Shown here in pieces: positions 5,002-64,000 of a DNA stretch of 64,000 nucleotides. The stretch is from Minisyncoccia bacterium (lineage in GTDB: Bacteria; Patescibacteriota; Minisyncoccia; Phycocordibacterales; UBA2100): assembly GCA_049297775.1 (NCBI GenBank), contig JBAQUX010000017.1:21337-85336 (forward strand), read 5' to 3'. A program made the translations under genes and the position numbers. The notes beneath the pieces are model-generated. The model saw only the letters and a program-made list of their open reading frames with translations, was not told where the DNA came from and did no database searches. How positions within the stretch are numbered: position 1 is the stretch's first letter; each line of letters starts with the position of its first letter.

Positions 5002-6933
5002 TTATAGAAGCACGCCCTTGATTCTGCGAATTCCAGCGGCTACCGCCTCCTCTTTCTGAATTTTAAATGTACCACCCTGCTCTATCTCTGAAGTATTCGT
5101 TACGTGTGGCCCACCACAGAACTCAATAGAAAATGCCTTATCGAACTGAGGGTTCTCAAGCGTTGCGCCAACAGGACCGAGTGAGTACACCGAAACAGTG
5201 TCAGGATATTTTGCACCGAACTCGTGTTCTGCATTCAACTTCTCTGCTTCTTCTTTTTGCATCGTTGAACGAGTCATTGGAAGATGTAACGTTATTTGTT
5301 CGTTCACGATATCCTCAACTCGCTTCTTCTCGTCGTCAGTCATTTTTGCCGTGTGTGAAAAGTCGATTCTGAGGCGCTCACCAGTGATATTACTTCCTCG
5401 CTGTTTTACCTGGGGGCCAAGGACTATCTGCAATGCCTTCAACAATAAGTGGTGCGTCGTGTGGAGACGTGTCGTTGCCTCAGACTGGTCTGCAAGTCCC
5501 CCTTTAAACTTTTGTTCTGCACCGGCACGTGATGCATCCTTATGGGCCTCCATTTCTTTCTTAAAGCCCTCTATGTCAACGGTAAGGCCTCGCTCGTGAG
5601 CAATCTCTTGTGTAACCTCAAATGGGAATCCGTGAGTCGTAAAGAGCACGTAGGCATCATGACCTGAGATGACCTTCCCTTCCGTTACTGCAGTTTTCTC
5701 AAACTCTTTCAATCCACGGGCAAGTGTCGCGCGGAATTTTGCTTCTTCATCAGAAACTGCTTTTTCAATATCTGCCGACTTCTCTGCAATTTCTGGATAG
5801 GCGTCTTTGTACATGTCAGAAATACTGCCAACAATCGCCGCAAACGCTTCATGCTTAACACTCAACTTATCTGCATGCATGACTGAGCGTCGAATGAGAC
5901 GACGAACGAAGTATCCTTGGTCAGCATTCGCTGGCAACACCCCATCAGCAATGAGAAACACCGCTGCCTTCATGTGGTCACAGATGATTCTGAAACTCTT
6001 TGTGTCTTGGTCGTTCTGTAAATAGACCTTTCCAGATAAATATTCGATGTAATTGATAACCGGCTTGTGGTTACACACAAAGACGTCCTTTGAATTTGTT
6101 GCGGCCATAACTATGCGCTCAAGTCCACCACCGAAGTCAACGTTCTGCTTAGGCAATAAGGCAAACGAGCCATCTGGCTGTTTCAAATACTGCATGAAGA
6201 CAGAGTTTCCGATTTCAACAAAACGTCCACAGTCACAGTTTGGATGACAGTGCTCGCCCCAAACTGGGTCATGCGGTGTGCCAAAATCATAGAAGACTTC
6301 TGAATCTGGTCCTCCTGGCTCACCTGCTGGCATATTTTCTGGGACACCTGCACGTGACCACCAGTTCTTTTTTGCATCGTAGGCAAAAATACGGTATTCA
6401 CTTCCATCACTAGCAATCATTCCTTTTTTGTACCCCTCTGCTTCACTTCCTATCTCTACATCATTTGCGATAATGTTTTTATTTGCAAATAACTCTTTCC
6501 AGACAGCAATTGATTCCGTATCTTTCGGCGTTCCGTTTTTCTCATCTCCGATGAAAGTGGTGACGTACAATTTTTTAGGATCGAGTCCGACACCATCTAC
6601 GGTGTCCGTAAGGAAATGGAAAAAGAATGGAAGTTGCTCTTTCTTAAAGTAATCACCGAGTGACCAGTTACCGAGCATCTCGAAAAAAGTTGTGTGACGG
6701 TTATCACCCACCTCTTCTATGTCACCTGAACGAAAGCACTTCTGTGAGTCACTGATACGAACACCTTCTGGGTGTGGAGCTCCCAAGAGATACGGCATGA
6801 ACGGTTGCATACCAGAACCAGTAAAGAGTGTTGTTGGGTCATTTGCAGGAACGAGCGATGCTGACGGCACAATAGCGTGACCGTTTTTTCTCATAAATTG
6901 TAAATACTTGGTGCGTACTTCGTTTGGGGTCAT
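5002..6933 (-). CDS. alaS: Alanine--tRNA ligase (short form; catalytic plus editing-type HxxxH domain)
   Basis: Class-II core SLVPANDPTTLFTGSGMQPF; later HTTHHLLLKALQIVLG HxxxH motif; alternative ATG at 6951. Confidence 0.85.
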   Translation of the reverse strand: MTPNEVRTKYLQFMRKNGHAIVPSASLVPANDPTTLFTGSGMQPFMPYLLGAPHPEGVRISDSQKCFRSGDIEEVGDNRHTTFFEMLGNWSLGDYFKKEQLPFFFHFLTDTVDGVGLDPKKLYVTTFIGDEKNGTPKDTESIAVWKELFANKNIIANDVEIGSEAEGYKKGMIASDGSEYRIFAYDAKKNWWSRAGVPENMPAGEPGGPDSEVFYDFGTPHDPVWGEHCHPNCDCGRFVEIGNSVFMQYLKQPDGSFALLPKQNVDFGGGLERIVMAATNSKDVFVCNHKPVINYIEYLSGKVYLQNDQDTKSFRIICDHMKAAVFLIADGVLPANADQGYFVRRLIRRSVMHADKLSVKHEAFAAIVGSISDMYKDAYPEIAEKSADIEKAVSDEEAKFRATLARGLKEFEKTAVTEGKVISGHDAYVLFTTHGFPFEVTQEIAHERGLTVDIEGFKKEMEAHKDASRAGAEQKFKGGLADQSEATTRLHTTHHLLLKALQIVLGPQVKQRGSNITGERLRIDFSHTAKMTDDEKKRVEDIVNEQITLHLPMTRSTMQKEEAEKLNAEHEFGAKYPDTVSVYSLGPVGATLENPQFDKAFSIEFCGGPHVTNTSEIEQGGTFKIQKEEAVAAGIRRIKGVLL

Positions 6934-6994
6934 AGTAGACACAGTATACATAACTACATATTTTTTTCACTATGTTCTTGTTGTACCATAGGGT

Positions 6995-7495
6995 ATGTCT
7001 AAAAAATCAGAAAAACTGGACACTGAGCCGTGCACAGCTCTACTCTACGACCCCACAATAGTATCGTGGGAAACAATTCGACATGACATTCTCAACATTG
7101 AACATGCGACATTCCCAAGCAAGCCGTTTGATGAGAAAGATTTAGAGGCTTTCTTCAAGAACAAAAGTTCTGTAATTGTCTTTCTAAAGGCGGGTACATC
7201 AATAGTAGGATATACATTAGGACACCCAGACCAAGAGCACTATAAATCCCTCTATATCTTTACTACGGGCATTGAGGAACGTTTTCAAGGCAAAGGTCAT
7301 GTAGCGGAACTGATGCGCACTCTTGAACATGAAGCGAAAAAGCGTGGGTTCACACATATAACGAGAGATGCACGAATAGATAATGGATACGCAGATGCAA
7401 TCAGTAGGCATTACGGTTCTCGGATTGATTCATTGCAGACGAGTGAACATGACTCTCCATGGGGTAGACAGCGTTTTTTTAAGATTGCTTTGTAA
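6995..7495 (+). CDS. GNAT family N-acetyltransferase
   Basis: Acetyl-CoA motif RFQGKGHVAELMRTLEHEAKKRG (Q/RxxGxG/A). Confidence 0.75.
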   Translation: MSKKSEKLDTEPCTALLYDPTIVSWETIRHDILNIEHATFPSKPFDEKDLEAFFKNKSSVIVFLKAGTSIVGYTLGHPDQEHYKSLYIFTTGIEERFQGKGHVAELMRTLEHEAKKRGFTHITRDARIDNGYADAISRHYGSRIDSLQTSEHDSPWGRQRFFKIAL

Positions 7496-49527: not shown

Positions 49528-49598
49528 TGCTAGATCGTCTAATGGTAGGACAGCGCCCTCTGAAGGCGTTTATCTTGGTTCGAGTCCAAGTCTGGCAG
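49528..49598 (+). tRNA. tRNA-Gln (anticodon CTG), CCA not encoded
   Basis: Acceptor TGCTAGA/TCTGGCA with U1-A72, D arm GTCT..GGAC, anticodon stem GCGCC/GGCGT with loop CTCTGAA, T arm CTTGG TTCGAGT CCAAG, discriminator G. Confidence 0.75.
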
Positions 49599-51275
49599 CA
49601 AAGTAAACGAGTGAGCATCTAAACTGCTCTCACAGGCTTGTATAGAGCCAATTCTTTGTGGTTCTAACCTCGCATTAAGCGATTCTGCTACATTTGATAC
49701 GTTTTTAATGCCCAGTAGTGCTGCGGGCAAGCAAATACTGAGTTTTTTATCCTTGAGCGTGAGGTTCGAGCCAAGACCTTCAAGAACTTCTTTTTTAGCT
49801 TGCGGGTCGTTACTCGTAAGTTTCTCTTTTGCGTGTGTTGCAAAGTCTAAATATCCATTCGCAATGCCGGCCCAGTCGATTGCACGTTCGTGTACTTGTT
49901 GTGATGTATAGCGCACGTTGTTTAACTCCTTCTCTACTACACCTCGAGTTGCCAGTAGTTGCTCTGAACTAATCTCACCACTTGCTCGCATCATAACGAG
50001 GTTGTCCAGCTTTTTCATAAGTTCTGTCTCGCGCTTGCGGTTCTGCTGCACGATATGCTCTTGGTCATCAATTTCATTTCTGTGCAGATACTTTATTCCC
50101 TCGATTGCCCATTCATAGAAATCCTTCTCAATATGAATCTTTTGAACTTCCGCGAGTATCTGTGCTTCTAACTCTGCGGACTCCATGTACGGCTGCGCAC
50201 AGGCACCTCGCTTTTGCGTACAACGGTAATATGTTTTGTCTACAACCTTTAAACCTTTCATATCACTCGCATCGGTCCCACAGCGCGGGCACGCTGTAGA
50301 AATACGCATCGAAAACTTTTCTTTGCATTTGGGGCATCGAGCGTGCACTTTTCGTTCTGCCGTAATTGAACAGCCACATTCGCCGCAGTGTATATTTCCC
50401 CTAAATGGAAAAGTGTAAGTATTTATTTTTGTCGGCTTTCCACGCCTTCCAAGGAGTCTCTGGACCGTATTGAACTCGTATTCAGACACCATCACTTCAT
50501 GCTTCCCAATAAATTGGCCCTTATTGCCCTCTTCATCGTTCCACTCGAAATGCCCATAGTAGAAAGGGTTTGTGAAGATGTTGTAATAGCTTGCACGCGA
50601 ATAGATTTGACCACTCTTGTTCTTTAAGCCCAAAGCATCTCCCTCGCGCTTAATATCTGGCACAGAATACTGCCCAGAAATCATCTTCTTCCAAAGAACT
50701 TTCACAATTCCAAACGAATCAGACCGAACAATCTGATCTCCAAGCTTACCTTTGCCGCGGTGCGCGTAGCCTGGCGGCAATACAGACGCAGGGAACCATC
50801 CAAGTGAGGCTTTATATCTCTGACTGCGCTTTACGTCCGTACTTAAATCTTTTACATATTGATTCGACATGCCAAGCTCTACTGCCATCATCATGATATT
50901 GTCTGCAGGCTTGTAGACCCCAGAATGTGTTTGTATGTAAGCAATTTTTCCACTCTGCAACATGTGAATGATCTTCCCGCCATCTACAAAGTTTCGCGCG
51001 AGGCGATTTATCTTCCAACAGATAATCCCATTTGCCTCACCCTTTTCAATCCTTTTCAACATTGCATTAAAGGCGGGCCGTGCCTCTGGCTCTTTAGCGG
51101 ACTTGCTTTCCAAAATAACGTCGAGGATGTTTATCCCTAGTTTTAAAGCTAGGGACTTCATTTCACTTACTTGGTTATCAAGCGACAGGACCTGCTTATC
51201 CTCAGTGTCCGTAGACTTTCTTCCATACAGAAAGCACTTTATATCTCTACTTTTCAGGGGGTTAAAGTTGTTCAT
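49539..51275 (-). CDS. Large serine recombinase (integrase), 3' end overlapping tRNA-Gln
   Basis: N-terminal resolvase-type catalytic domain (FLYGRKSTDTEDKQ with catalytic Ser; ICWKINRLARN), recombinase domain, Cys-rich zinc-ribbon (CGECGC..CPKC..CPRCG), C-terminal coiled coil. Confidence 0.85.
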   Translation of the reverse strand: MNNFNPLKSRDIKCFLYGRKSTDTEDKQVLSLDNQVSEMKSLALKLGINILDVILESKSAKEPEARPAFNAMLKRIEKGEANGIICWKINRLARNFVDGGKIIHMLQSGKIAYIQTHSGVYKPADNIMMMAVELGMSNQYVKDLSTDVKRSQRYKASLGWFPASVLPPGYAHRGKGKLGDQIVRSDSFGIVKVLWKKMISGQYSVPDIKREGDALGLKNKSGQIYSRASYYNIFTNPFYYGHFEWNDEEGNKGQFIGKHEVMVSEYEFNTVQRLLGRRGKPTKINTYTFPFRGNIHCGECGCSITAERKVHARCPKCKEKFSMRISTACPRCGTDASDMKGLKVVDKTYYRCTQKRGACAQPYMESAELEAQILAEVQKIHIEKDFYEWAIEGIKYLHRNEIDDQEHIVQQNRKRETELMKKLDNLVMMRASGEISSEQLLATRGVVEKELNNVRYTSQQVHERAIDWAGIANGYLDFATHAKEKLTSNDPQAKKEVLEGLGSNLTLKDKKLSICLPAALLGIKNVSNVAESLNARLEPQRIGSIQACESSLDAHSFTLLPDLDSNQDKRLQRALSYH

Positions 51276-51889: not shown

Positions 51890-51925
51890 ATATGCAAAAT
51901 AAGGTCGCGACCTTATTTTGCATAT
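51890..51925 (-). terminator. Perfect 36-nt palindrome (atatgcaaaataaggtcgc|gcgaccttattttgcatat) overlapping the stop of 51913..52665; T-run on the minus strand
   Basis: 18-bp perfect stem without loop spacer, followed by TTTTTTT on the minus strand. Confidence 0.55.
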
Positions 51926-52665
51926 TTCCTTATTTCGTCCCTTATTTCCTTGCGTATTCTTAATATATGAGCCTGCTCATACTTTTTCCCAAACTTTGAT
52001 TTCACGCTGTCACTAAGTTTACCGATACCCAACTCGACATTCTTCCGAATATGCTCCCTCAACTCTTGGGATGATTCCTTTGGCCTTCGTGCTATTCCGA
52101 GTTTCACCTTAGGATTTTTGTGATATTTTTGCATCGGCAAAATCTCTCTCTGGTACTGATTCTTTACAAAACTAAGAATATCTTCCTTTGACACATATGG
52201 TGAAATGAGAATGGCGACAGGGTGATTTTGTACATTATGGCGAAGACCGTCTTCAAAAACTTGCTTCTCCTCTTTGTCCCAGTGCGGACCATTCAACTCT
52301 AACTGTATATTTACAGTTTGGATAAGTCCGTGCATTTGCAAATCTAGAGAGCCGCTCGGAAGCCAATCGTTGTAACATACATAATAAGAAAAAGTTTCAA
52401 CCCATATTGGCTCGAGCTTGAGCTTTTCGAAAACAATCTTTTCTATATCCTGGTAGAATTGTTTAGGAAGCGATGGTGTAGTTATGTTTTTCTCCTTACC
52501 GGGGAATCCTTTAACGCGAGCAAATGTTTCGTACCCACCCAACGGGATACCGTACTTTTTTCTTATCTTCCTAATTGATTCTGAAAGAGGGCGTTTTTCA
52601 ACCGTACTCATTAAATAGCTCCACACTTTTTGGTTTGGGTCTTGCATACGGATTGTGTCACTCAC
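51913..52665 (-). CDS. Hypothetical protein (250 aa, Lys-rich C-terminus)
   Basis: Clean ORF with strong terminator; no recognisable family. Confidence 0.5.
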   Translation of the reverse strand: MSDTIRMQDPNQKVWSYLMSTVEKRPLSESIRKIRKKYGIPLGGYETFARVKGFPGKEKNITTPSLPKQFYQDIEKIVFEKLKLEPIWVETFSYYVCYNDWLPSGSLDLQMHGLIQTVNIQLELNGPHWDKEEKQVFEDGLRHNVQNHPVAILISPYVSKEDILSFVKNQYQREILPMQKYHKNPKVKLGIARRPKESSQELREHIRKNVELGIGKLSDSVKSKFGKKYEQAHILRIRKEIRDEIRKYAK

Positions 52666-52897
52666 AATTTTAGTCCCTATATGATAAAATAACCAGTACG
52701 CCCTGGAAGGGGTGGCACCTAACCCTATTCATCTCACGATGAGCAGGTATGGTGCACAGTCGCAAAAAGCATAGAAAACCCGTCATTGGGGTGCTTTTTG
52801 CGCCGTACAGGGAAACTTGTATGAGGGAGAAATCCCTACCTTCAGTGGCGGGTTTTTTGAGTGCCACGTTTTGCTTATCAATTTTCATTACAAAAAC

Positions 52898-53094: not shown

Positions 53095-53478
53095 GTGAAA
53101 GACCCCGACTCGCTTTTATATGAATATTTGCAAGCATGCGCTGACCTATTACATGCGCAGTCTGTGAAAGATAAGTTCAAATGCAAACAGTATCTAGTCA
53201 TAACGACAATCCTCTTTTTTGCGGTCGCATGTATTGTGTTCGCAGTGGTTGACCGCTTATCATTCTGGGACCTAAGCATAATCATACTGCCCCTCTTATT
53301 TTTGGGCGCACCCCTTCCGTTCGAAGCTCACAGCAGCTATAGCCATAACAAATCCAATGCACTGGAAATTGAGGGTATATTGAGCAAATGGCAACGCAAA
53401 TATTCAGACGAAAGGATTACAGCAGAAATACATATCCTCAGGAAAGAAGCCGAGTCCATACTAAAAAAATATGAATAA
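53095..53478 (+). CDS. Hypothetical membrane protein (2 TM)
   Basis: 127 codons, 8-nt overlap with the next gene (operon). Confidence 0.45.
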   Translation: MKDPDSLLYEYLQACADLLHAQSVKDKFKCKQYLVITTILFFAVACIVFAVVDRLSFWDLSIIILPLLFLGAPLPFEAHSSYSHNKSNALEIEGILSKWQRKYSDERITAEIHILRKEAESILKKYE

Positions 53479-54211
53479 CGAATCCGGACTAGTGGCACTG
53501 ATGAAGTACGTTGAAGGCTCGGGCATGTGTCTCGAACACACCTGCACCACCTGCGGCAACCAAGACTTCCGCACCGCTCTCGCTTTTGTTGCCTATGGCC
53601 ACAGTCCCGCGAATAAACAAGACTGGACAGAGACAACGAAAAGCCATGACAGCACAGCGATACCGCTTTTGTATAGAGGTAACACGCAAACCCACCTACA
53701 AAACAAGCTGCTAGAGGCGATAAAAGGCACTCTCTGGCACGAAACTGTGCGTGTAGCACCAAAGTCCTGGTTCGATATGATGCGCATCATTCTGGACAGT
53801 TTTAGGGGTAATAAACGAGCAAAGGATGTCTCAATGGTTATCGCACGTGACATGCTGCAAGTTGCCGTACCCGGGACCGAACTGCATACACAGCTTGAGC
53901 GAGTCGCAGCAGTTGATACTGCTGATGTTCTCACAGGCACGCTACTGCTACTGTTTGCGCGAGAGGACAGAAGAAACGACACGCCGGAGAGCATGAATAG
54001 ACTCGAAGAGATAAACAAGCGCGCAGGCTCGCTATCACTTGCAGATGTAGAGATTCTCACCGATGCGGAGGTTTTGAGTATGTCGGTCCCACGCCCGGGG
54101 CACCCGACACATCGTGGTTTTATGCTCAATCCCAAGTATTTCAAAGACCAAGAGCACTTCTCGCAGATTACTCACACGCTCATGCAGCGACTAATGCGTA
54201 TCAAGCACTGA
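53471..54211 (+). CDS. Hypothetical protein with CxxC cluster (CLEHTCTTCGN)
   Basis: 246 codons, no recognisable family. Confidence 0.5.
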   Translation: MNNESGLVALMKYVEGSGMCLEHTCTTCGNQDFRTALAFVAYGHSPANKQDWTETTKSHDSTAIPLLYRGNTQTHLQNKLLEAIKGTLWHETVRVAPKSWFDMMRIILDSFRGNKRAKDVSMVIARDMLQVAVPGTELHTQLERVAAVDTADVLTGTLLLLFAREDRRNDTPESMNRLEEINKRAGSLSLADVEILTDAEVLSMSVPRPGHPTHRGFMLNPKYFKDQEHFSQITHTLMQRLMRIKH

Positions 54212-54440
54212 TTTTGTACGTAACCGTCACAACTCAGACAATTCCTTCAGGCCTGGTCTTTTCCGTCACTTTCCGTCATGACGGATTGCAACTTAACTTT
54301 TACACTTCTACGGCTTAAGTCTTGGAGGCTGGGTGACGGATTCTCCCACAAAACCTTCAGTCCTAGCGAATAATCTAAGCTGTATGTGCAGATTCGGCTC
54401 GTGTAGTTGTATCGTCTCGATTTAGGTCTATACTTGCCCT

Positions 54441-54659
54441 ATGTATATCCTCACACAGTACTTCATAACCTTCGGTTGGGCACTTACCGCCGCCCTCTCT
54501 ATGGCTGTTGCTATTAGCATTGGTCTTAAGATATTCACCTACCTTTCTCCTATTGATGAATGGGGAGAAATAAAGAATGGCAACATGGCTATGGCTGCAA
54601 TTCTTGTCGCCACCATTCTCGGTATGGCATACGTAGTAGCTGCTACCATTAACGCATAA
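54441..54659 (+). CDS. DUF350-like small 2-TM membrane protein
   Basis: 72 codons, two hydrophobic helices separated by EWGEIKNGN loop. Confidence 0.45.
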   Translation: MYILTQYFITFGWALTAALSMAVAISIGLKIFTYLSPIDEWGEIKNGNMAMAAILVATILGMAYVVAATINA

Positions 54660-54661
54660 CT

Positions 54662-54985
54662 ATGAAAGCTGTGGTGTGTCTCACTCTTGTACTTCTTGTC
54701 GCTCCCGCGGTTACATTTGCACACCCGGGTAGAACAGATGCTAGTGGGTGCCACACTAACAAGAAGACCGGTGAGTATCACTGTCACGGCACTACCCCAG
54801 ATGTTCGCACCGCCCGGACCGAGGCACGATCAGAAGCTCGTAATATCTATGACAAGGATTGCAAAGACTTCCATACACAACAAGAGGCGCAGGACTTCTT
54901 TATTTCACAGGGAGGTCCCACTTCAGACTCACATGACTTGGACCGAGATCATGATGGTGTGGCATGTGAAGACTTACGGAAATAG
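54662..54985 (+). CDS. Secreted protein with C-terminal Excalibur calcium-binding motif (DLDRDHDGVACE)
   Basis: Signal peptide; DxDxDGxxCE motif at C-terminus. Confidence 0.6.
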   Translation: MKAVVCLTLVLLVAPAVTFAHPGRTDASGCHTNKKTGEYHCHGTTPDVRTARTEARSEARNIYDKDCKDFHTQQEAQDFFISQGGPTSDSHDLDRDHDGVACEDLRK

Positions 54986-54987
54986 CC

Positions 54988-55497
54988 ATGAAGGGTATGT
55001 ACATAGTCGTAGGTGTTTTGGTATTGCTCGCAATGCTTTCCGGCGGCACGAACACTGTTGAAAAAGCCGGTGAAGCAGAGTCTGAGGCACATTCATTTGC
55101 AGTAAGCACACCTACCGCAACCCCGAGTACATATAACAACTACACGGGAGAGTACGATGAGCCCGAAGACATAACAATAGATCGTGTTGATGCAATATAT
55201 GATCATTGGGACGAGATCCGTGAGTATGTTAATGGCTCAGAGACAATAGAGGCATGTTCCTCCTCAAGTGGTAACTGTTATGACTTGGATGCTGATATAT
55301 CATCCGGCTCTATAGAGCAGATAGGCTTCGAGAATGGAGGATATCTCTACTTTTCAGCAGAGATTGATTCAGATGGAAATGCATCTGACACTGATGTGCG
55401 AGGTGACAGTTGGGATTTTACATTAGATATGGACTCTTCTATCGTTGATGATGCCGTACAGGAGTGGGCAGACTATGAAGGGTATGAGGTGGAGTAG
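54988..55497 (+). CDS. Secreted acidic (Asp/Glu/Ser-rich) protein
   Basis: Signal peptide, highly acidic low-complexity body. Confidence 0.5.
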   Translation: MKGMYIVVGVLVLLAMLSGGTNTVEKAGEAESEAHSFAVSTPTATPSTYNNYTGEYDEPEDITIDRVDAIYDHWDEIREYVNGSETIEACSSSSGNCYDLDADISSGSIEQIGFENGGYLYFSAEIDSDGNASDTDVRGDSWDFTLDMDSSIVDDAVQEWADYEGYEVE

Positions 55498-55499
55498 TC

Positions 55500-57791
55500 T
55501 CACATATTGTCAACCGTTGTCGCTTCATTTGCCAACGAGATACTCCCAGGACCTTCATCTGTTGAATCTTCCTTATCTAAAAAGAGCAACTCTCTTTCGT
55601 TCAATTTAGCTATGACTGGCTGTTTCAACTTCAATGCCTTTCCGATTATTATCGCATGTCTATCATCAAGTGTGGGAAGAATATTAGAGAAATCTGAACC
55701 GATATAGTTTTCTAGAAACTGTTTACCAGTGTCATCGAATACTCGCAAAGCGAATATTGTATTGCACTGATTCAAAATACTTTTACTTATATTTGCAGTG
55801 CGCTGAGTAACTACCATACTACCAAGACCGTACTTTCTTCCTTGCAATATAACTCTCGCCGTACCATTTGCAGCACTCTTGTCACCCTCATTTGCAACTG
55901 AGTTCCATTCTGGTATCAACGAATGAGCCTCTTCGTACACCAAAAATGCTTTTGCCTTTTCGGTTAAACCAGAGTCTCTACAGATTTCTAAAACTGTCTC
56001 GGACAATATCCGCGTAATCTCTGCAACAGACATCTCAGAGAATGGTGCGTACATCGACCAATTTTTCCCATCAAGTTGTCCGTTTTTTACATTCTCTTCT
56101 TGCTTCAGCGCAGTGATCTCCTCTGGATTTACTACTAAAACTCTTTTGGTGTTTTCTGTACTAAAAAATGCACCAAGCGCAGACCTCAGACATTCTTTGA
56201 GCAATTCAATGTCTCCACCGTCATGCTTAGAAACTTTTGGGATAGTTCTTGTTGTTTGCGTCGCAAGTTCGCTATTTAGTGTGGAAGTATCGAAAACCTA
56301 AAGTGCATCTTCTTGCAGGTATCGAGGTAAGCCGTGACTTTTATTCGCATACTGTCCTGTAATATCTATACATATTATTTTTGTCTCAGTTTTAGCACAA
56401 AGCTTTTGTATAAGTTCAAATGTTAAACATGACTTTCCTACACCAAGAATACCCAAAATAGCAGTATTATGTGTCACCAACGCATCGTAATCAGCAATTT
56501 GCATAACAAAATCTGTCCCCGGAAGTCTGCCGATACTATCTCCAGGTTTTATTTCCGCATGATTTTCCTGCGCGAATAGAGGCGCATACCCGTCCGGAAC
56601 CCATTTTGCCGTTAGTATTTCCTTTTTCTCTACGCTATATGTGCCAAGTTTTCTTGCGACACCCACAAGATATGAGTCGTTGTCGTGCCCAATGAGGTCA
56701 TCTCGTTTAGTAAATCCATCAAGTACTTGATATAGAACGTCTACGTTTCTAACCATAGAGCTCACAATCATCCCTTCTGTGATTTGAGAGCCCACATCGT
56801 TATTAAATATTCTAAACTGGACTTTATTAATATGTGAGTCTGGTAGAACATACCCTACGAGTGACTTACGGTTTTTGTATAACTCTGTGTTTTGTATGCG
56901 CCCCAGAGTTTCTGAATCAATATCCGCAGCATTCATTTTATATGCCTTATGGCTCGAGGTAATGTTTGTAGTTTCTGATTCAAAAACTTCACTGGTTAGC
57001 TCAGAAAGTACATGAACTAAAATCCAATTTTTGTCCAGTAGCATATTTTTTTGTACGACCACACCAAAACTCTTCTCCCCACGCTCATGAATCCTAACAA
57101 GGTCGCCCAAAGACACACTTTCTTGTGTATTCCTTGGATCTATTTCAACCTTAAATACGTATTTACTCTCATTACCAATTACTTTTCCTAAATATGTTTC
57201 TCGATCCCAAAGATTTCTCAAAAACTTAAATATGCCATCAATGACGTTTTCAACCAGGAAGCCTGAGATGAATACTACCCAAAAAGAAAAGAGTAAAATC
57301 TGGGCCACTTTATCTGATTGAAAATATGAGAATGTGGTGCTCAAGTAGATAACCGAATAAGCGACTTTTGATCTACCGAAATAAGTTAAGATGTTGCCGA
57401 AGATGTCAAAATATTTTGAATGTTCATATTTCCTAACAAGTAGTATGTAAAGGACGGAAAGTCCAACAAGCATTGAGGCGCACCCAATGAGAAAATCTCG
57501 CCCAATATATGCGTCAATGTCGTTTATGCCTAAGAGGAAGAGCAGGACACCAGTTGCATTAACCAGAACATCTGTAACTTTTGTAAAAAAAGGCTCGGCA
57601 ACATATGCGCCAAAAATAAGGAGTAGTCCGCCTGACACAAATATTTTGTTATACTGTGTTGAACTATCCAATATTGCCCAGAAATCTCCACCGGTTAGGT
57701 ACGTCAAGATTCCTAGTAGTACAAGTATATACACAACCACAACTAAAATCCTTTCTTTGAATCCCAGCTCTATTTTGGCTAGTGAAGACAT
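55500..57791 (-). pseudogene. Membrane-anchored HerA/FtsK-superfamily P-loop ATPase interrupted by a single in-frame TAG (56298-56300)
   Basis: N part (56298..57791): six TM helices, HAS-barrel-like segment, Walker A GILGVGKS. C part (55500..56204): Walker B FLVYEEAH and VVTQRTANISKS (TQRP-like) motif. Both parts are in the same frame; 31 sense codons lie between the TAG and the called TTG start. Confidence 0.7.
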
Positions 57792-57879
57792 GTCGAGAAG
57801 TATATCACTTTGCTTTATTTTTCGCCTTGGATGATTTTTCTACACTCATCCGTCCGAGAGAATAACGATCCTAACCTCC

Positions 57880-58284
57880 CTAAGGGTAGAGACTCGCGTA
57901 GTATTGTGCAATCTTCGTCATATCCGACTCAAAACGTTCCTTATCATCTTTGAATAAGCTCTGGGAACCAAACAGCGGTGAATCTGGCTCTGAAAAAACG
58001 TAAAAATCCCCCTGTACTGCTTCGCAGTGTGGGCATACATTTGCCCAATATTCACTATCACTCATTTGTGTGTAGCTTACTTTTACAGTTTTCGGTATTG
58101 GCTCAGGAGGTACTGATGGCTCATCTGCCCACTCATCTTCAGGCCACACGAACGCAACCATCTCCCCTTTACATTTCCAGCATTTATAGGGAGCGTAGCG
58201 GTATTTATATCCTTCAGGTAACGACACCTTAGTTGCCTCAGATATACGATTTATTACCAATAGAAACTGTTCGAGATTTTCCAT
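57880..58284 (-). CDS. Small zinc-ribbon protein (CWKC ... CPHC)
   Basis: 134 codons with two CxxC pairs; co-oriented between the 1011-aa gene and the ATPase. Confidence 0.55.
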   Translation of the reverse strand: MENLEQFLLVINRISEATKVSLPEGYKYRYAPYKCWKCKGEMVAFVWPEDEWADEPSVPPEPIPKTVKVSYTQMSDSEYWANVCPHCEAVQGDFYVFSEPDSPLFGSQSLFKDDKERFESDMTKIAQYYASLYP

Positions 58285-58333
58285 ATTTTATGATAGATCA
58301 CTGAAACTATTGCTTGCAAATAGATTTATTGCT

Positions 58334-61300
58334 CTAGTCTTTCTTAACAATATCGACCAGCGGCCAAAATGGCTCACTGCCTGCGGCGACTAAATCATTC
58401 ACAAGATCTCTCACAGCAGGCCTCAATTTTTCATTAGAGTAGAGGGCTGTAAACGCCTCTTCCCATGTTTCGTCAATATAGACCCACCGCAATTCATCGT
58501 TGCGTAACTTGTTATCACTTCCAAGGAAGTGTAGACGAATGATTGTAAGCGTATCTTCCGGTGCTGCGTTTGCCAGCAATGGGAGTGACTTGGTCATACC
58601 GTGATCCCAACTGAGGAGTCCCGAGGTCTTCTCCATAGTTGCTCTCAGGTGCTTTGCTAAATAAGGTAAGGATATCACACCCTCCTCCGCATCAACCCAA
58701 AGCCCAAACGACGAGAGTATTACTCGACTTTCAATATGCTCATTTGCCCAAGTCCAAAATGCGAGCAAACGTTCGAGGAAGAAGTGGTTGTTTTTTGTTT
58801 GTTCTTCTATCCATTTTTTGGCACCTGACCTTGAGAAGGCCTGCCCGCCAATAAACTTAATAAACTCTGAGAGTCTTTCTTCATTCTGTGTGTCAATAAA
58901 CCTCTTTAGAATCTCACTATTCTCCGGTGAAAAATTGTCGTAGTGCATGAACGCCAAACCGAAGTGCGTAGCAAGGCCTTCGTCTAGATCACGGAAGTAT
59001 TTGCGCTTCGTGTACCGATCTTTATTCAACTCCATTAGGTAAGAGTATTCGGGCTGCATTGCCGTGAACACGTCGTACCACAGACCAGACGTTAAATATC
59101 CCTCCATAGCGGCAAGGTACAAATCGTTATTATTTCTATCGAAAATCATCCCAAAATGCTCTTGCATCCATTTCGGGTCTCGTAGGTAAAATGTTGCGAG
59201 ATACTTACCAAACAAGAATCTAACCGCACGAGTCTTCTCATTCTGAGCTAGCAGTACGTAGATAGACTTCACATCATCGCTTAAACGTATTTCGTCAGTC
59301 TTCTTACCTTTCTTTTCCTGCAACTGCACGTCCTTATCCACAAACATTGCAAGTGCCTGAAAGGCACGGCCACGAACAGAGTTTATAGCCTTTGTAAAAG
59401 GATCTGACTCCGAATACTCCTCTTCACCATCGTACTTAGTTCTGAGCTTAGGAATCTCTTCCTCTGGCGTAGGATCACTACTGACAAGCAGATATGCAAG
59501 GGTCTCGATGAAAAATTGCCTATTCTTTTCAAAACTGACAGGCTCACCGTCATACCTAAGCAGGTGGTGCAATAAATCTGTCAATGCCACACAAACCCCA
59601 TCCCAGTCAGACAAAAAGAAATCCTGGTTATTCTTATCACGAGTAACCTTAGAAAAAGGATTCGATTTACCAGATTCAATTATTTTTTGAATAAAAGTTA
59701 TTACACTGCTCTGTTGGTCAGGAGTGAGCTTGCCGTCTTTTTTTAAGTAACCAATAACACCCCAAATATATTTGTATGTATAGCCGGGGTCGATACTTTC
59801 CCGATCAAAGAAGGATGCGGCATTGTCGAGGTATTCAGACGGTCTCTCCGCAAAATCCTCTTCAATTTCTGCCGCAACCCCAGAAGCACTAATTGGCCTC
59901 AGGAAGTTTTGACTTGTATCTTTAATATTTTCAGGCCTAAGACGAGTCTTAAGCAGCTCGATCACTTCGTTAAGTGGCTTACCCTTTACAGACTCTGGTG
60001 CCTGTGGAATAACAGTGCCACCTGTCACTCCACTCGACATTGGTGTAGGTATGTAGTTTGGGTCTAACTTCCAACCTAACCCTTGCATTTTTGCCTTCAG
60101 CTCTTCGTTTAAATGACTGTGAATACATGACGCAATGCGAGAGGCACGAATAAGCGAAAATCTTTTTTCGTCCTCTTTTTCATCAGCGGGAAAGAGCTTG
60201 AACAGGCCATCTATATATTCACTTTGTTGTTCATGAGACAGAAAGTTGAAATGTCGCTTTAGCAAAGTTGCATACTCAGCGCCATACATTAAGTCGTGCA
60301 GCTCTTCCTTATTCTTTACGTATAGTATTCGCTGAATTGCCTCCACGATTACATCCTTAAGTGCATCTGGAGTCAAAGACATCAGTGAGAGCTTTAGTCT
60401 CCATGTTGTCTCACTTTCAGTCAAAGCTCTTGGAAACTGTTCGTATACGTGCACAATATTTAGAGCAAAAGCATTCTCAACAGCCTTCTTATACAGCAAC
60501 TTGTAAACTGCAAAAAGACTTCTGATATCTTCCTGCGAGTAGCTCTCTATATTTAATACATCCAGTTCAAAAAAGTCTACATCGGAAAAATAAAGCCCAT
60601 CATCGAGTCCTGATTTTGATTCTTGAGGATACATTTCCATTGCGAGTTTTACTACACGGTTGAGTGCATCATGCACAATATTCAAGCTCTGCTCAGGTTC
60701 ATTTGTGGAGAGTAGTGCTTCCACAACTCCCGTTCGTTTAAGATCATCTACATAAAACCAGCGTCGTGAATACGAATGTTCAACGTCGCTATTCTTCTCG
60801 ACACCTTTTACCGTAAGGACAATTTGTGCCAACTTGTTGATGGTGGTATCGTCACCCGCACTCTTTAAAGTCTTAAACATTTCATCATACTCAAATCCCC
60901 AAGTTCTGTAAGCTGCAAGCCAGTGCACCCAATCTTCGGCAACCATTTTTTCAACAAACTTTGCAAGATTTTCTGGTGAAAACTTAGTGGCAATACTGCG
61001 GAAGCGAAGCGGGATATTCACATTTACATTTCCCTCTTTCAGAGGTAGCGATAGAATGTGCTTTGCAACCAAATCTTCATCAAACTCAACCATTCTTTCT
61101 AAAAAACGCATCTCGGGAGAGAAATATGTTTCTTTACCTATTGTATCAAGACTGAACTTTTCAATTGTCAGAAACTGATTTTCAATCAACCACAACAGCC
61201 ACTCTTTGCCAATTGTCGAAAAAATAAATCTTCTAGCATCTAAACTTGGGTTAGAAAGTTGAACAAACAATTTCGCGGCGGAGTTACTGTTAAAGTCGCC

Positions 61301-61369
61301 GTTCACGATCTTTGTAATCTCATTATGAATCTGAATTGGATCAGTTGCCATATTGGTTGTTTTCTTCAT
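58334..61369 (-). CDS. Large hypothetical protein (1011 aa, predominantly alpha-helical, no recognisable catalytic motif)
   Basis: Uninterrupted 3-kb ORF, 29-nt overlap with the upstream 250-aa gene. Confidence 0.6.
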   Translation of the reverse strand: MKKTTNMATDPIQIHNEITKIVNGDFNSNSAAKLFVQLSNPSLDARRFIFSTIGKEWLLWLIENQFLTIEKFSLDTIGKETYFSPEMRFLERMVEFDEDLVAKHILSLPLKEGNVNVNIPLRFRSIATKFSPENLAKFVEKMVAEDWVHWLAAYRTWGFEYDEMFKTLKSAGDDTTINKLAQIVLTVKGVEKNSDVEHSYSRRWFYVDDLKRTGVVEALLSTNEPEQSLNIVHDALNRVVKLAMEMYPQESKSGLDDGLYFSDVDFFELDVLNIESYSQEDIRSLFAVYKLLYKKAVENAFALNIVHVYEQFPRALTESETTWRLKLSLMSLTPDALKDVIVEAIQRILYVKNKEELHDLMYGAEYATLLKRHFNFLSHEQQSEYIDGLFKLFPADEKEDEKRFSLIRASRIASCIHSHLNEELKAKMQGLGWKLDPNYIPTPMSSGVTGGTVIPQAPESVKGKPLNEVIELLKTRLRPENIKDTSQNFLRPISASGVAAEIEEDFAERPSEYLDNAASFFDRESIDPGYTYKYIWGVIGYLKKDGKLTPDQQSSVITFIQKIIESGKSNPFSKVTRDKNNQDFFLSDWDGVCVALTDLLHHLLRYDGEPVSFEKNRQFFIETLAYLLVSSDPTPEEEIPKLRTKYDGEEEYSESDPFTKAINSVRGRAFQALAMFVDKDVQLQEKKGKKTDEIRLSDDVKSIYVLLAQNEKTRAVRFLFGKYLATFYLRDPKWMQEHFGMIFDRNNNDLYLAAMEGYLTSGLWYDVFTAMQPEYSYLMELNKDRYTKRKYFRDLDEGLATHFGLAFMHYDNFSPENSEILKRFIDTQNEERLSEFIKFIGGQAFSRSGAKKWIEEQTKNNHFFLERLLAFWTWANEHIESRVILSSFGLWVDAEEGVISLPYLAKHLRATMEKTSGLLSWDHGMTKSLPLLANAAPEDTLTIIRLHFLGSDNKLRNDELRWVYIDETWEEAFTALYSNEKLRPAVRDLVNDLVAAGSEPFWPLVDIVKKD

Positions 61370-62093
61370 GTTCTGATTCTAGTATCAAGGAGTACATTTG
61401 CTCGTCGATTTTATTGAAGACATGCTCAGTCAACTCCTTGTGACTTTCAAGCTTGTTATATCCATTGATCAAATCTTTAAACTTATTTAGACTCTCAGAG
61501 GTAGGGAGTAAGCATTCCTTTCTTGCAATTTCTCCTAGGAAACTTATTGCACTAACATAGTCCTTTCTATCTACACATCCACATGCACTCTTATATGATG
61601 TAATCGAGGAATTGTAACTGTAGATCTGTGGCATCTTTTCAATTATGTAGCTACGTCGCCCGCTTACTTTAAATGCTTCAGGCTCTGCACTTAGACTTCC
61701 AATACCACTTGACACAGGGCCGAAAAAAATACTTTCAATTGGGCCATTAACAACTGTTTGATGCACAGTCGATTGTTCGTTTGCAGAAGCGACTGCACTG
61801 GCCTTACTGAGGTCGGCATTGCCAGCTCCTATTGTATCTTCTCTTCTAAAAAAGCTCGTTGCGAGGCGATGAAAACCTGTGCCCATCAAGAACGTCGCGA
61901 ACAGCGTCATTGCGTATTGATAAGTAAAATCGTCTGCTTGAAAATCAGGGAAGAGAATATTATGTAGAAATGGGTATGCGATTGCAAAAGTCTGCCCGAA
62001 GACAAGTTCACCAGCACTAACAAGCCAGGGTGCAGAATCAACCGATTGATTCGCATCTGAGAACATTTTTTTAACTGATTCGAGTGCATTCAT
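61341..62093 (-). CDS. Hypothetical protein (250 aa, one hydrophobic segment)
   Basis: First gene of the minus-strand operon; preceded by a 380-nt AT-rich region with a palindrome. Confidence 0.5.
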   Translation of the reverse strand: MNALESVKKMFSDANQSVDSAPWLVSAGELVFGQTFAIAYPFLHNILFPDFQADDFTYQYAMTLFATFLMGTGFHRLATSFFRREDTIGAGNADLSKASAVASANEQSTVHQTVVNGPIESIFFGPVSSGIGSLSAEPEAFKVSGRRSYIIEKMPQIYSYNSSITSYKSACGCVDRKDYVSAISFLGEIARKECLLPTSESLNKFKDLINGYNKLESHKELTEHVFNKIDEQMYSLILESEHEENNQYGN

Positions 62094-62194
62094 CGATGGT
62101 CTGACTTAGATACACATTATACCACGCGCATAATACAGGTTCTAACCTTCCTAAGTTCTGCCAGCACATGAGCGGAGCGAAAGTGATGACAGAA

Positions 62195-62216
62195 GTTATC
62201 AAATAGTTTTGATAAC
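62195..62216. promoter_or_regulatory. Perfect 9-bp inverted repeat with 4-nt spacer (GTTATCAAA tagt TTTGATAAC), candidate operator
   Basis: In the intergenic region upstream of the 61341..62093 operon. Confidence 0.35.
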
Positions 62217-62270
62217 GCCTTGGACTCGAAGACCGGAGCGATGTTTTTGTTTGCAGTACTCTGCAAGGCA

Positions 62271-62292
62271 AAAACCGCGAGGTCCGGTTTTT
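62271..62292. terminator. Bidirectional terminator hairpin (aaaaccgcgaggtccggttttt)
   Basis: Stem aaaccg/cggttt flanked by A-run and T-run, downstream of the 62476 gene. Confidence 0.4.
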
Positions 62293-62475
62293 GGAAAAGT
62301 GAGTCAACACTTTTACCAAAAAGAGTCGAGTCTGGCAGCCAAGTTTAGTTAATAGAAGATAAAAAAAACGTTTATAAATAGTGTTTTTTATTAGAAAATT
62401 ATTTTTTCACTTTTACAATAATTTTTCATTACTGCCCAACTTTTGATACCCTGACAACAATTATCAATTTTATAA

Positions 62476-64000
62476 TTAATACTTGTTGTTAGCAGGAAAC
62501 AACTTTCTTGCTTCTGCCAAGTTAACTCTGAATTTATAGCCGTGCTTTTCTAGTAGCCCAAGTAGCTTTGCACCATCAAGCAATGTTATTGGTTTGTTTT
62601 GAACGAAAGCATAAGCATCTGCTCCAAAAGTACTAGTGGTAACAAGTATTCCTCTTGATGCACCTTCATGAGCGACAACTGCGACCAAGTCTCTTACAGC
62701 ACTCACATCTACAGTGTTTGTATATCTTTTAGCTTGAATTACATACTTACCACCCCTAATAGGGTCAGGATTAAAGACAATAGCATCGACGCCTTTATCA
62801 CGGCTCGATTGAGTTAATTTAATCTCTGTTCCTTCTTCAGAAAACTCTTTTTGGAAAAGCTCAGCAATAAGGTTTTCAAAATCCTGCCAATCCATTGATG
62901 CAAGGTTGGTTTGCGCATCTAGTGTTCCAATCACTTCCTTGGTCTTAATAAACCTCTTATCCTTTTTATCCAAAGACATTACAGGAGACACAGGAATAAT
63001 ATCTATCAATTTACCTGCAGACTTTCCTTTAAGACCTAAGAATGCCGACAACGGATCGAGCTTAGATAACTTAAGTTGAACTATTTGCTCTTTGGTTGTT
63101 GCAAGTGAAGCTGTATATGTACGAGTTAAATTACCTGTCGCAGGATCATCAAATTCTACCCAGCCATTAAGGACAAGGAGTTTAATTTTATCTGCATCAT
63201 CGTTGCGAAATATTTCATATGCAATTCGCAGCATAACAGAAGGATGTATATTCGGAATTAATTCCTTACCTTCTTTAATCGTGAGAGGTTTCTCAACTGT
63301 CTCCCTTTTGAGATGGACTTCCTTTAGGACTTGATTGTGTACAACATCAGGCAACTTTATTTCGACAATTGCAATACCCTCGTTAACGTCAAAGTCTATA
63401 TCCCAAACTTTAGGAATAGATGCTGGAACAGTGATGTTATCAATGACAAAGTTAAATCGTTTGATAACGTCTTCTTTTTCGCCTTTTTCATAACCACTTC
63501 TTATAGCTTTGAAGAAAGCTTTCGCTTCATTTCCTTCTTGAATATCCTTCTCGATTGTCTTATTAAACTCTGCTATTTCATTATTTAAGGCATAAATTGA
63601 AGCAAGGTTTGTAAGCTTGTTGCTCTCAACCTTTGAAGAAAACGACGGGAAAGGCTTGGTCTTATGCGGTTGTTTAACCAAATCTTTTTCAAGTTCATCC
63701 CAAGGGTGCAAATCGGCAGAAAGTATTAGAGGTATATCCTCAATACAAAGACTACCCTTCTCTTTTCTCTGTCGAGTTGATTTTAACTGTGAAGAATCTT
63801 TTCTTTCTGCTTTAACCTTGGCAAATTCTGCTCTATACCTTTTTACGTTACGCTCAACTTCTTTTATTGTTTCTTCCTGCTCCCATCTTTCCATTCTTAA
63901 TTTTCTTTCCTTTTCTGCTCGCTCATTATCCTCGGCTTGGTTTCGAGCTGTAATTATATCTTTTTCTGCTTGTAATTCTTTTTTTCTGTCAGCAAAGGCA
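62476..64000 (-). CDS. Mrr-cat (restriction-endonuclease-like) domain protein with long coiled-coil/charged N-terminal region; 5' end beyond window
   Basis: C-terminal MDWQDFENLIAELF...GVDAIVF...VIQAKRY...RGILVTTSTFGADA matches the Mrr N-terminal catalytic domain pattern. The reading frame stays open upstream of the called ATG (63894) to position 64000. Confidence 0.7.
   Translation of the reverse strand, partial: AFADRKKELQAEKDIITARNQAEDNERAEKERKLRMERWEQEETIKEVERNVKRYRAEFAKVKAERKDSSQLKSTRQRKEKGSLCIEDIPLILSADLHPWDELEKDLVKQPHKTKPFPSFSSKVESNKLTNLASIYALNNEIAEFNKTIEKDIQEGNEAKAFFKAIRSGYEKGEKEDVIKRFNFVIDNITVPASIPKVWDIDFDVNEGIAIVEIKLPDVVHNQVLKEVHLKRETVEKPLTIKEGKELIPNIHPSVMLRIAYEIFRNDDADKIKLLVLNGWVEFDDPATGNLTRTYTASLATTKEQIVQLKLSKLDPLSAFLGLKGKSAGKLIDIIPVSPVMSLDKKDKRFIKTKEVIGTLDAQTNLASMDWQDFENLIAELFQKEFSEEGTEIKLTQSSRDKGVDAIVFNPDPIRGGKYVIQAKRYTNTVDVSAVRDLVAVVAHEGASRGILVTTSTFGADAYAFVQNKPITLLDGAKLLGLLEKHGYKFRVNLAEARKLFPANNKY

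Follow-up and report, generated by a model that had tools for sequence, protein, structure and literature searches.

The 64,000-nt stretch of Minisyncoccia DNA analysed here, termed the window (contig JBAQUX010000017.1, positions 21,337 to 85,336), contains between positions 55,500 and 62,093 four co-oriented genes on the minus strand: gene A, gene B, the zinc-ribbon-like gene C and a gene for a membrane-anchored ATPase of the HerA/FtsK superfamily. The original prediction, made from the sequence alone, located these genes correctly and took them for a single undescribed module. They are not one machine: the locus comprises a predicted sensor module, A-B-C, and a separately acquired, broken membrane HerA. 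The interpretation favoured here, with somewhat better than even confidence, is that of a mosaic defence island on an element integrated beside a tRNA-Gln gene by a large serine recombinase, in which an Mrr-type restriction endonuclease, the A-B-C module and the HerA cassette are three independent units. The same confidence applies to its central component, in which A-B(-C) would be a sensor of the Dsr1/Avs7 type with its effector encoded in trans. Coordinates of all features are given in Table 1. The predicted 29-nt overlap of A and B (61341-61369) was confirmed; it shortens to 11 nt with the start at Met7 that the public gene call P0001 assigns to B. C starts 49 nt downstream of B and the HerA-like gene a further 88 nt past C.

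The separation of HerA from the other three genes is most directly seen in a sister element, where the genes A'-B'-C' are followed directly by convergent genes for an Excalibur-domain and a DUF350 protein, with no HerA, no 169-aa open reading frame (ORF) and no Mrr gene. B' (P0002) is 78% identical to B and is its only close relative, and C' is 88% identical to C. At the DNA level the window and the sister are similar over 57890-60974 and 53528-54976; the homology breaks off precisely where the coding sequence of C terminates and is restored at the Excalibur gene. HerA and the 169-aa ORF (approximately 54986-57879) thus constitute a 2.9-kb indel. The 169-aa ORF is present only with HerA, within this indel, and no homologue of it was found in any fetched locus, near HerA or B genes alike. 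A counterpart of the Mrr gene was sought in the sister element and gave no match.

Gene neighbourhoods were surveyed with a simple in-house ORF caller in a sample of about 60-80 loci per family. For B, 63 genome loci were fetched with a 14-sequence alignment, mostly from Patescibacteria of the candidate phyla radiation (CPR), Caldilineaceae and metagenome-assembled genomes of Gammaproteobacteria. Neither a membrane-type HerA nor a C homologue was found near B homologues in any of the 63 loci, and the gene downstream of B differs almost everywhere. A single locus contains a HerA-like gene, which is an unrelated gene of 556 aa on the opposite strand. Conversely, A, B, C and genes for the domain termed X, described below, are absent from all 82 loci examined that carry a homologue of the membrane-type HerA. 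Absence of co-occurrence in other genomes had been named beforehand as the outcome that would refute a four-gene module, and that is the outcome obtained. A four-component machine for defence or DNA handling, in which HerA would be the motor in the membrane and B a giant protein working with it, would account for the tight, co-oriented packing of the genes and has a parallel in HerA defence systems such as SIR2-HerA, in which the ATPase is paired with an effector; in other genomes, moreover, homologous methyltransferase-ResIII pairs precede B-type modules as well as membrane HerA. Against this stand the sister element, the lack of B-HerA adjacency in all 63 and 82 loci, the stop codon that interrupts HerA and the restriction of C to the lineage of the window. 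This explanation is largely refuted and is now very improbable.

The ATPase, predicted as one gene, is split by an in-frame TAG at 56298-56300 into ORFs of 497 aa and 234 aa, as seen in the one-frame translation of 55500-57791 (...RYLQEDAL*VFDTSTL...). The codon interrupts the P-loop domain after Walker A and before Walker B. The same TAG and the same two ORFs occur in a second assembly from a different sequencing run (L070; 9855 bp, 100% identical), and the stop codon is therefore not an assembly error. Recoding of TAG was rejected, as 14 of 49 long ORFs in the window, B included, terminate in this codon, which is thus an ordinary stop here, and a tRNA search revealed no suppressor tRNA. The ATPase has 611 homologues that could be aligned to more than 95% of its length, with identities of 40-46%; these are single proteins of about 750 aa in which the frame is continuous across the site matching the TAG.

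The other features ascribed to the ATPase were for the most part borne out. The motifs GILGVGKS (Walker A), YEEAH (Walker B) and TQR are present, hydropathy indicates 5-6 transmembrane (TM) segments at the N-terminus and Pfam DUF87/HerA scores 31.4 bits, above its gathering cut-off of 23.2, which supports the assignment to a membrane-anchored branch of the HerA/FtsK superfamily, of which an uninterrupted polypeptide is the one attribute missing. The proposed HAS-barrel gave a weak Pfam match only (E 0.079). The 3' part matches PADLOC HerA models with E values as low as 7.6e-25. In NCBIfam the equivalog cut-offs are missed by a wide margin, with 63.6 bits against 850 for HerA_antiphage_2, 24.7 against 800 for a further anti-phage HerA equivalog and 36.7 against 970 for helicase_HerA.

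Since the usual partner genes are absent and the nonsense codon falls between Walker A and Walker B, the HerA gene has most likely been inactivated recently. It might alternatively still function as an independent, membrane-anchored DNA translocase in defence, either by read-through of the TAG or as two polypeptides, one of 497 aa and one restarting at TTG 56204. The lesion is a single nonsense codon with no further damage, the remaining frame is intact and retains all motifs, and the allele is identical in two assemblies. A GGAG-like sequence lies about 8 nt ahead of the TTG, so that expression as two polypeptides is conceivable. A split within the P-loop domain would nevertheless have to be tolerated where all 611 homologues are single chains, TAG would have to be read in a genome fragment in which it is a standard stop and no suppressor tRNA was found, and the protein would have to act without its usual nuclease, methyltransferase and helicase partners. 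Continued function is accordingly considered distinctly unlikely.

The setting of the membrane HerA homologues is itself informative. In the 82 loci, neighbouring genes encode N6_N4 methyltransferases (14 loci), ResIII helicases, PD-(D/E)xK or DUF2779 nucleases, HsdR/HsdS, Schlafen/AlbA_2 proteins and HNH nucleases, with a recurrent gene order of methyltransferase-ResIII-HerA-nuclease. No description of a membrane-anchored HerA clade was found in literature searches. It is a widespread, uncharacterised clade that resides in defence islands, often in operons resembling type III restriction-modification (R-M) systems. Close homologues of the window HerA occur in methyltransferase-ResIII-HerA-DUF2779/PDDEXK_1 operons, and one PADLOC HerA model is labelled 'Type III coevolved'; the window differs from these in that the partner genes are absent and HerA stands alone beside the 169-aa ORF. 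With SIR2-HerA (Nezha/Gao19) and DUF4297-HerA the window ATPase has in common a HerA-family P-loop and a barrel-like segment, and the PADLOC and NCBIfam models that it matches best are those of anti-phage HerA. The window protein differs from both in the block of 5-6 TM helices at its N-terminus, the stop codon and the low equivalog scores, and no SIR2 or DUF4297 match was obtained for its neighbours in the window with Pfam, PADLOC or NCBIfam. The archaeal HerA-NurA end-resection complex shares the ATPase superfamily, and a nuclease is likewise a frequent partner of the homologues; the window clade, in contrast, is membrane-anchored and found in bacterial defence islands, not beside Mre11/Rad50. 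The combination of genes matches no named defence system, as had been claimed.

The module might alternatively serve to transfer the DNA of its integrated element, acting as a translocase of the conjugative TraB/FtsK or the Ced type. Such a role would be in keeping with the location in an element that carries a serine recombinase, and weak matches were obtained to TrwB (E 0.046), VirB4_plasma (E 0.0079) and CedD (E 4.7e-4). These do not amount to membership of the conjugative translocases (TraB/FtsK, VirB4, VirD4/TrwB), the scores being 13.1 bits against a cut-off of 20.5 for TrwB and 13.9 against 590 for VirB4_plasma. The best matches are to anti-phage HerA models, the homologues adjoin R-M and nuclease genes rather than relaxase or type IV secretion genes, and the gene is broken. 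A transfer function is the least probable of the explanations considered. The original prediction had left the choice between defence and DNA transfer open while setting aside a standard conjugative module; the latter judgement is upheld by the sub-threshold matches and the R-M and nuclease neighbours, a defence setting is likely and a role in conjugation is rejected.

Protein B, in which no recognisable feature other than its helical character had been noted, is no longer an orphan. It belongs to no Pfam, NCBIfam or PHROG family, and word-indexed searches with B alone or with a 49-sequence profile recovered two close relatives only. An exhaustive search of representatives yielded 670 cluster representatives, of which 187 had E values below 1e-30. 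Residues 436-843 of B match positions 713-1076 of the PADLOC Dsr1 model PDLC04166 (E 7e-21), and three B homologues match the same model at 1e-16 to 1e-19, reaching model position 1198. The matched part is the C-terminal, non-SIR2 region of Dsr1. The earlier statement that only the ATPase core could be recognised was therefore incomplete, and the profile searches that it had called for identified B and HerA, gave nothing for A and returned sub-threshold zinc-ribbon matches for C.

The AlphaFold2 model of B, built on the 49-sequence alignment, is a helical repeat from end to end, with a mean predicted local distance difference test (pLDDT) of 89 and a predicted template modelling score of 0.74. 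No enzymatic motif is conserved across the family, the invariant residues being mostly aromatic or glycine. The description of B as a helical protein devoid of catalytic motifs thus stands, with the addition that it is recognisable as homologous to the sensor part of Dsr1. Sequence searches of the PDB with B or its profile gave no match.

Avs7, a STAND NTPase, and Dsr1 (defence-associated sirtuin 1) have been reported to possess the same bilobed sensor of helical repeats, whose ligand is the phage major capsid protein and which is present, too, in proteins outside the STAND group, coupled there to NADase, nuclease, kinase, HEPN-like, MBL or TM effectors (PMC12803255, bioRxiv 2026 preprint). 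B resembles these proteins in being a large alpha-helical repeat protein whose C-terminal half matches the Dsr1 hidden Markov model (HMM), and in belonging to a family whose sensor is joined to interchangeable N-terminal effectors and is also found on a P-loop ATPase, as described for Avs7. The last of these is a 1510-aa P-loop 'ATP-binding protein' reached by tblastn on a Natronorubrum bangense plasmid (NZ_CP031308.1; L153 1581-6113), in which aa 869-1458 match the B profile (90 bits) and aa 652-1498 the Dsr1 model (PADLOC, 8.8e-37). It is probably an archaeal Avs7-like protein. Its gene adjoins a DUF4238 gene. B shares with Dsr1 the C-terminal sensor region and lacks the N-terminal SIR2 NADase domain, for which neither B nor A gave a match in Pfam, PADLOC or NCBIfam; the same databases gave no P-loop or NTPase match in B, which sets it apart from the STAND NTPases of the Avs group. 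Further differences are that in the window lineage the effector slot contains no fused enzyme but a gene of its own, overlapping B, whose product is small and hydrophobic, that an additional zinc-ribbon gene follows B and that many relatives of B lie in R-M-like operons of CPR bacteria. On this profile evidence B is best regarded as a non-enzymatic alpha-solenoid sensor of the Dsr1/Avs7 family, an assignment that carries the confidence given above for the island as a whole. Full-length B homologues at 31-32% identity were also observed on two IMG/VR contigs classed as viral (L151, L152); no relative of gene C was found in viral contigs.

Two sizes of B homologue were observed, one of about 1000 aa and one of about 1160 aa with an extra N-terminal domain, X, of about 170 aa. 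An HMM of X located the domain, for most of the shorter forms, in a separate gene directly upstream. Among loci with a full-length B, X is fused to B in 17 and encoded by the adjacent upstream gene in 19; in six loci the upstream gene encodes a small protein with N-terminal TM helices, which showed no similarity to X in hhalign, and in four another feature is present, in one case a weak match to a CHAT protease. These counts indicate that the conserved unit consists of an effector, fused or adjacent, and a sensor. Residues N, D, Q, S, R and HH are invariant in domain X, which also contains an R-x4-H motif, and 9 of 21 members match Pfam pP_pnuc_1 (best E value 1.6e-4), which describes a predicted nuclease associated with pPIWI. 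X is therefore predicted to be a pP_pnuc_1-like nuclease domain. The slot gene with the CHAT (caspase-like protease) match is that of a Saccharibacteria locus (L020 6870-7994; E 1.5e-4, below the Pfam cut-off) and is preceded by a type IIG-like methyltransferase gene.

Gene A occupies this slot in the window. It has no Pfam, PADLOC, NCBIfam or PHROG match. Its counterpart A' in the sister has two clear TM helices, and the two proteins are barely alignable (BLASTP, E 0.05). The divergence extends into B: comparison of 60900-62093 with 5973-7200 of the sister locus L002 gave 22% identity for aa 1-50 of B, rising to 48% for aa 101-150 and to 80-100% past aa 250. Divergence thus affects A and the first approximately 150 aa of B together (22-48% in B), while the rest of B is 80-100% identical, which suggests either a contact interface between A and the N-terminus of B or a swapped module. 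Gene C, with its sub-threshold Pfam matches, is a lineage-specific zinc-ribbon accessory conserved in the window and the sister.

A part of the B family is associated with R-M genes. In at least six loci the genes directly preceding B or X-B encode an Eco57I/type IIG-like methyltransferase and a PLD-SNF2 helicase (DrmD-like, 'HKD+Snf2'); in two they encode ResIII and an N6_N4 methyltransferase. In the CPR loci L009, L016, L032, L042, L061 and L063 a helicase of about 1100 aa and a methyltransferase of about 900-1240 aa precede X-B, an arrangement that may represent a composite R-M-like system with a protein sensor. The methyltransferase and ResIII proteins of L005 (3797-11781) and L037 (3458-11024) are 37% and 31% identical, respectively, over their full length; in L005 they are followed by membrane HerA and DUF2779, in L037 by X and B. 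B and membrane HerA thus look like alternative add-ons of the same kind of R-M pair. This shared pair is the only link found between the two families and does not make them partners.

These contexts raise the alternative that B is an accessory or regulatory scaffold of R-M-like systems, for example by recruiting a nuclease domain to a methyltransferase-helicase complex, and that A-B-C of the window is an orphaned remnant. Most B loci, those of the window and the sister included, have no adjacent R-M pair, the sensor is common to Dsr1, a stand-alone defence protein, and to a P-loop ATPase, and the conserved unit is effector plus B. The scaffold explanation, for which the loci with adjacent R-M genes remain the principal argument, is for these reasons judged unlikely, though less so than a functional HerA.

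Several observations weigh against the mosaic island with an autonomous A-B sensor module, in addition to the otherwise undamaged frame of HerA described above. The neighbourhood surveys cover samples and not all members of each family, and depend on a simple ORF caller. The occurrence of many B homologues in R-M operons means that B could serve those systems rather than sense autonomously. The Dsr1 match is limited to approximately aa 436-843 of B (up to about 964 in homologues), and structure searches with the B model, which the original prediction had suggested as a check, returned only solenoids of a generic HEAT/ARM kind, none of them from Dsr or Avs7, so that family membership is based on HMM similarity. 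The N-terminus of A is moderately hydrophobic, with a best 19-aa hydropathy of 1.33, which is below the usual TM threshold, and has no clear TM helix. The single-sequence AlphaFold2 model of A reached a pLDDT of 37. No similarity of A was detected either to domain X, using hhalign, or to the TM-type slot proteins of other loci. The effector role of A is accordingly argued by analogy of position.

If the mosaic island is accepted, its operation may be envisaged as follows. The Mrr enzyme would act independently on modified DNA. B would recognise a phage structural protein, by analogy with Dsr1 and Avs7, for which the major capsid protein has been shown to be the trigger. On binding the phage protein, B would set free or switch on the effector encoded in the slot directly upstream, which is the predicted nuclease X in most relatives and a small hydrophobic or membrane protein in a minority that includes the window lineage. 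A, in turn, would abort infection by acting on the membrane, and C would be an accessory of the A-B module. The cassette of HerA and the 169-aa ORF between C and the Excalibur gene would have been separately acquired or retained and is most likely inactive.

Table 1. Features of the island and the integrated element, with positions in the window.
Feature	Position	Strand	Description
Gene A	61341-62093	minus	250 aa, overlaps start of B
Gene B	58334-61369	minus	1011 aa, all-alpha solenoid, no enzymatic domain
Gene C	57880-58284	minus	134 aa, zinc-ribbon-like, CWKC...CPHC pairs
HerA 5' ORF	56298-57791	minus	497 aa; 5-6 TM segments, barrel-like segment, Walker A; ends at in-frame TAG
HerA 3' part	55500-56297	minus	Frame of the 5' ORF; Walker B YEEAH, TQR
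HerA 3' listed ORF	starts TTG 56204	minus	234 aa
169-aa ORF	54988-55497	plus	Hydrophobic segment at N-terminus, rest acidic
Mrr-type (type IV-like) restriction endonuclease	62476-63894	minus	Pfam Mrr_cat, PADLOC mREase_IV
tRNA-Gln(CTG)	49528-49599	plus	Visible end of integrated element
Large serine recombinase	49539-51275	minus	Visible end of integrated element
LOOT RNA	52716-52837	plus	Rfam RF03000, 74.3 bits (gathering score 46.4)

The integrated element spans from the end marked by tRNA-Gln and the serine recombinase to beyond the end of the window. The Mrr nuclease and the integrase noted previously near the four genes were both confirmed, the former with 109.9 bits (E 9.9e-32) for Pfam Mrr_cat and 1e-45 for PADLOC mREase_IV, the latter as a large serine recombinase. 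The endonuclease is an independent neighbour within the island. The recombinase ORF and tRNA-Gln(CTG) overlap by about 60 nt on opposite strands, as expected for integration at or into a tRNA gene. Genes common to the elements of the window and the sister encode 250-aa, 246-aa, DUF350 and Excalibur-domain proteins (51913-52665, minus; 53471-54211, plus; 54441-54985, plus) and form a conserved backbone that flanks variable defence cassettes, the DUF350 and Excalibur domain matches being the sole clues to their function. The element also contains a LOOT RNA, which is overlapped by small ORFs on both strands. The LOOT motif is typical of Lentisphaerae, OD1, OP11 and TM7, and its presence, taken with the taxonomic spread of the B homologues, points to a probable CPR host. 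An 82-aa ORF at 62071-62319 appears spurious, and a scan for promoters and terminators found sites no commoner than in shuffled sequence.

Taken together, these data remove a false lead, as there is no new four-gene HerA machine at this locus, and assign to the Dsr1/Avs7 sensor superfamily an unannotated family of 1011-aa proteins, frequent among CPR bacteria, that has about 670 representatives and no Pfam or NCBIfam model. As a consequence of this placement, trigger and effector become directly testable. By the same analogy, Dsr1/Avs7-type sensors may have their effector supplied in trans by a gene for a small protein that diverges rapidly. A broader proposal is put forward tentatively and with well below even confidence: that B and its approximately 670 relatives constitute an 'effector-in-trans or fused' branch of the Dsr1/Avs7 capsid sensors, enriched in CPR bacteria, in which the sensor controls either a pP_pnuc_1-like nuclease or a fast-evolving small membrane protein such as A that co-varies with the N-terminus of the sensor, and in which the sensor module and membrane HerA are interchangeable add-ons of the same type III-like methyltransferase-helicase pair. 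If true, this would point to composite R-M systems, as a class, whose second layer is a protein sensor or a membrane motor. The defence biology of CPR bacteria has been little explored, and these findings offer usable starting points for it without overturning current understanding.

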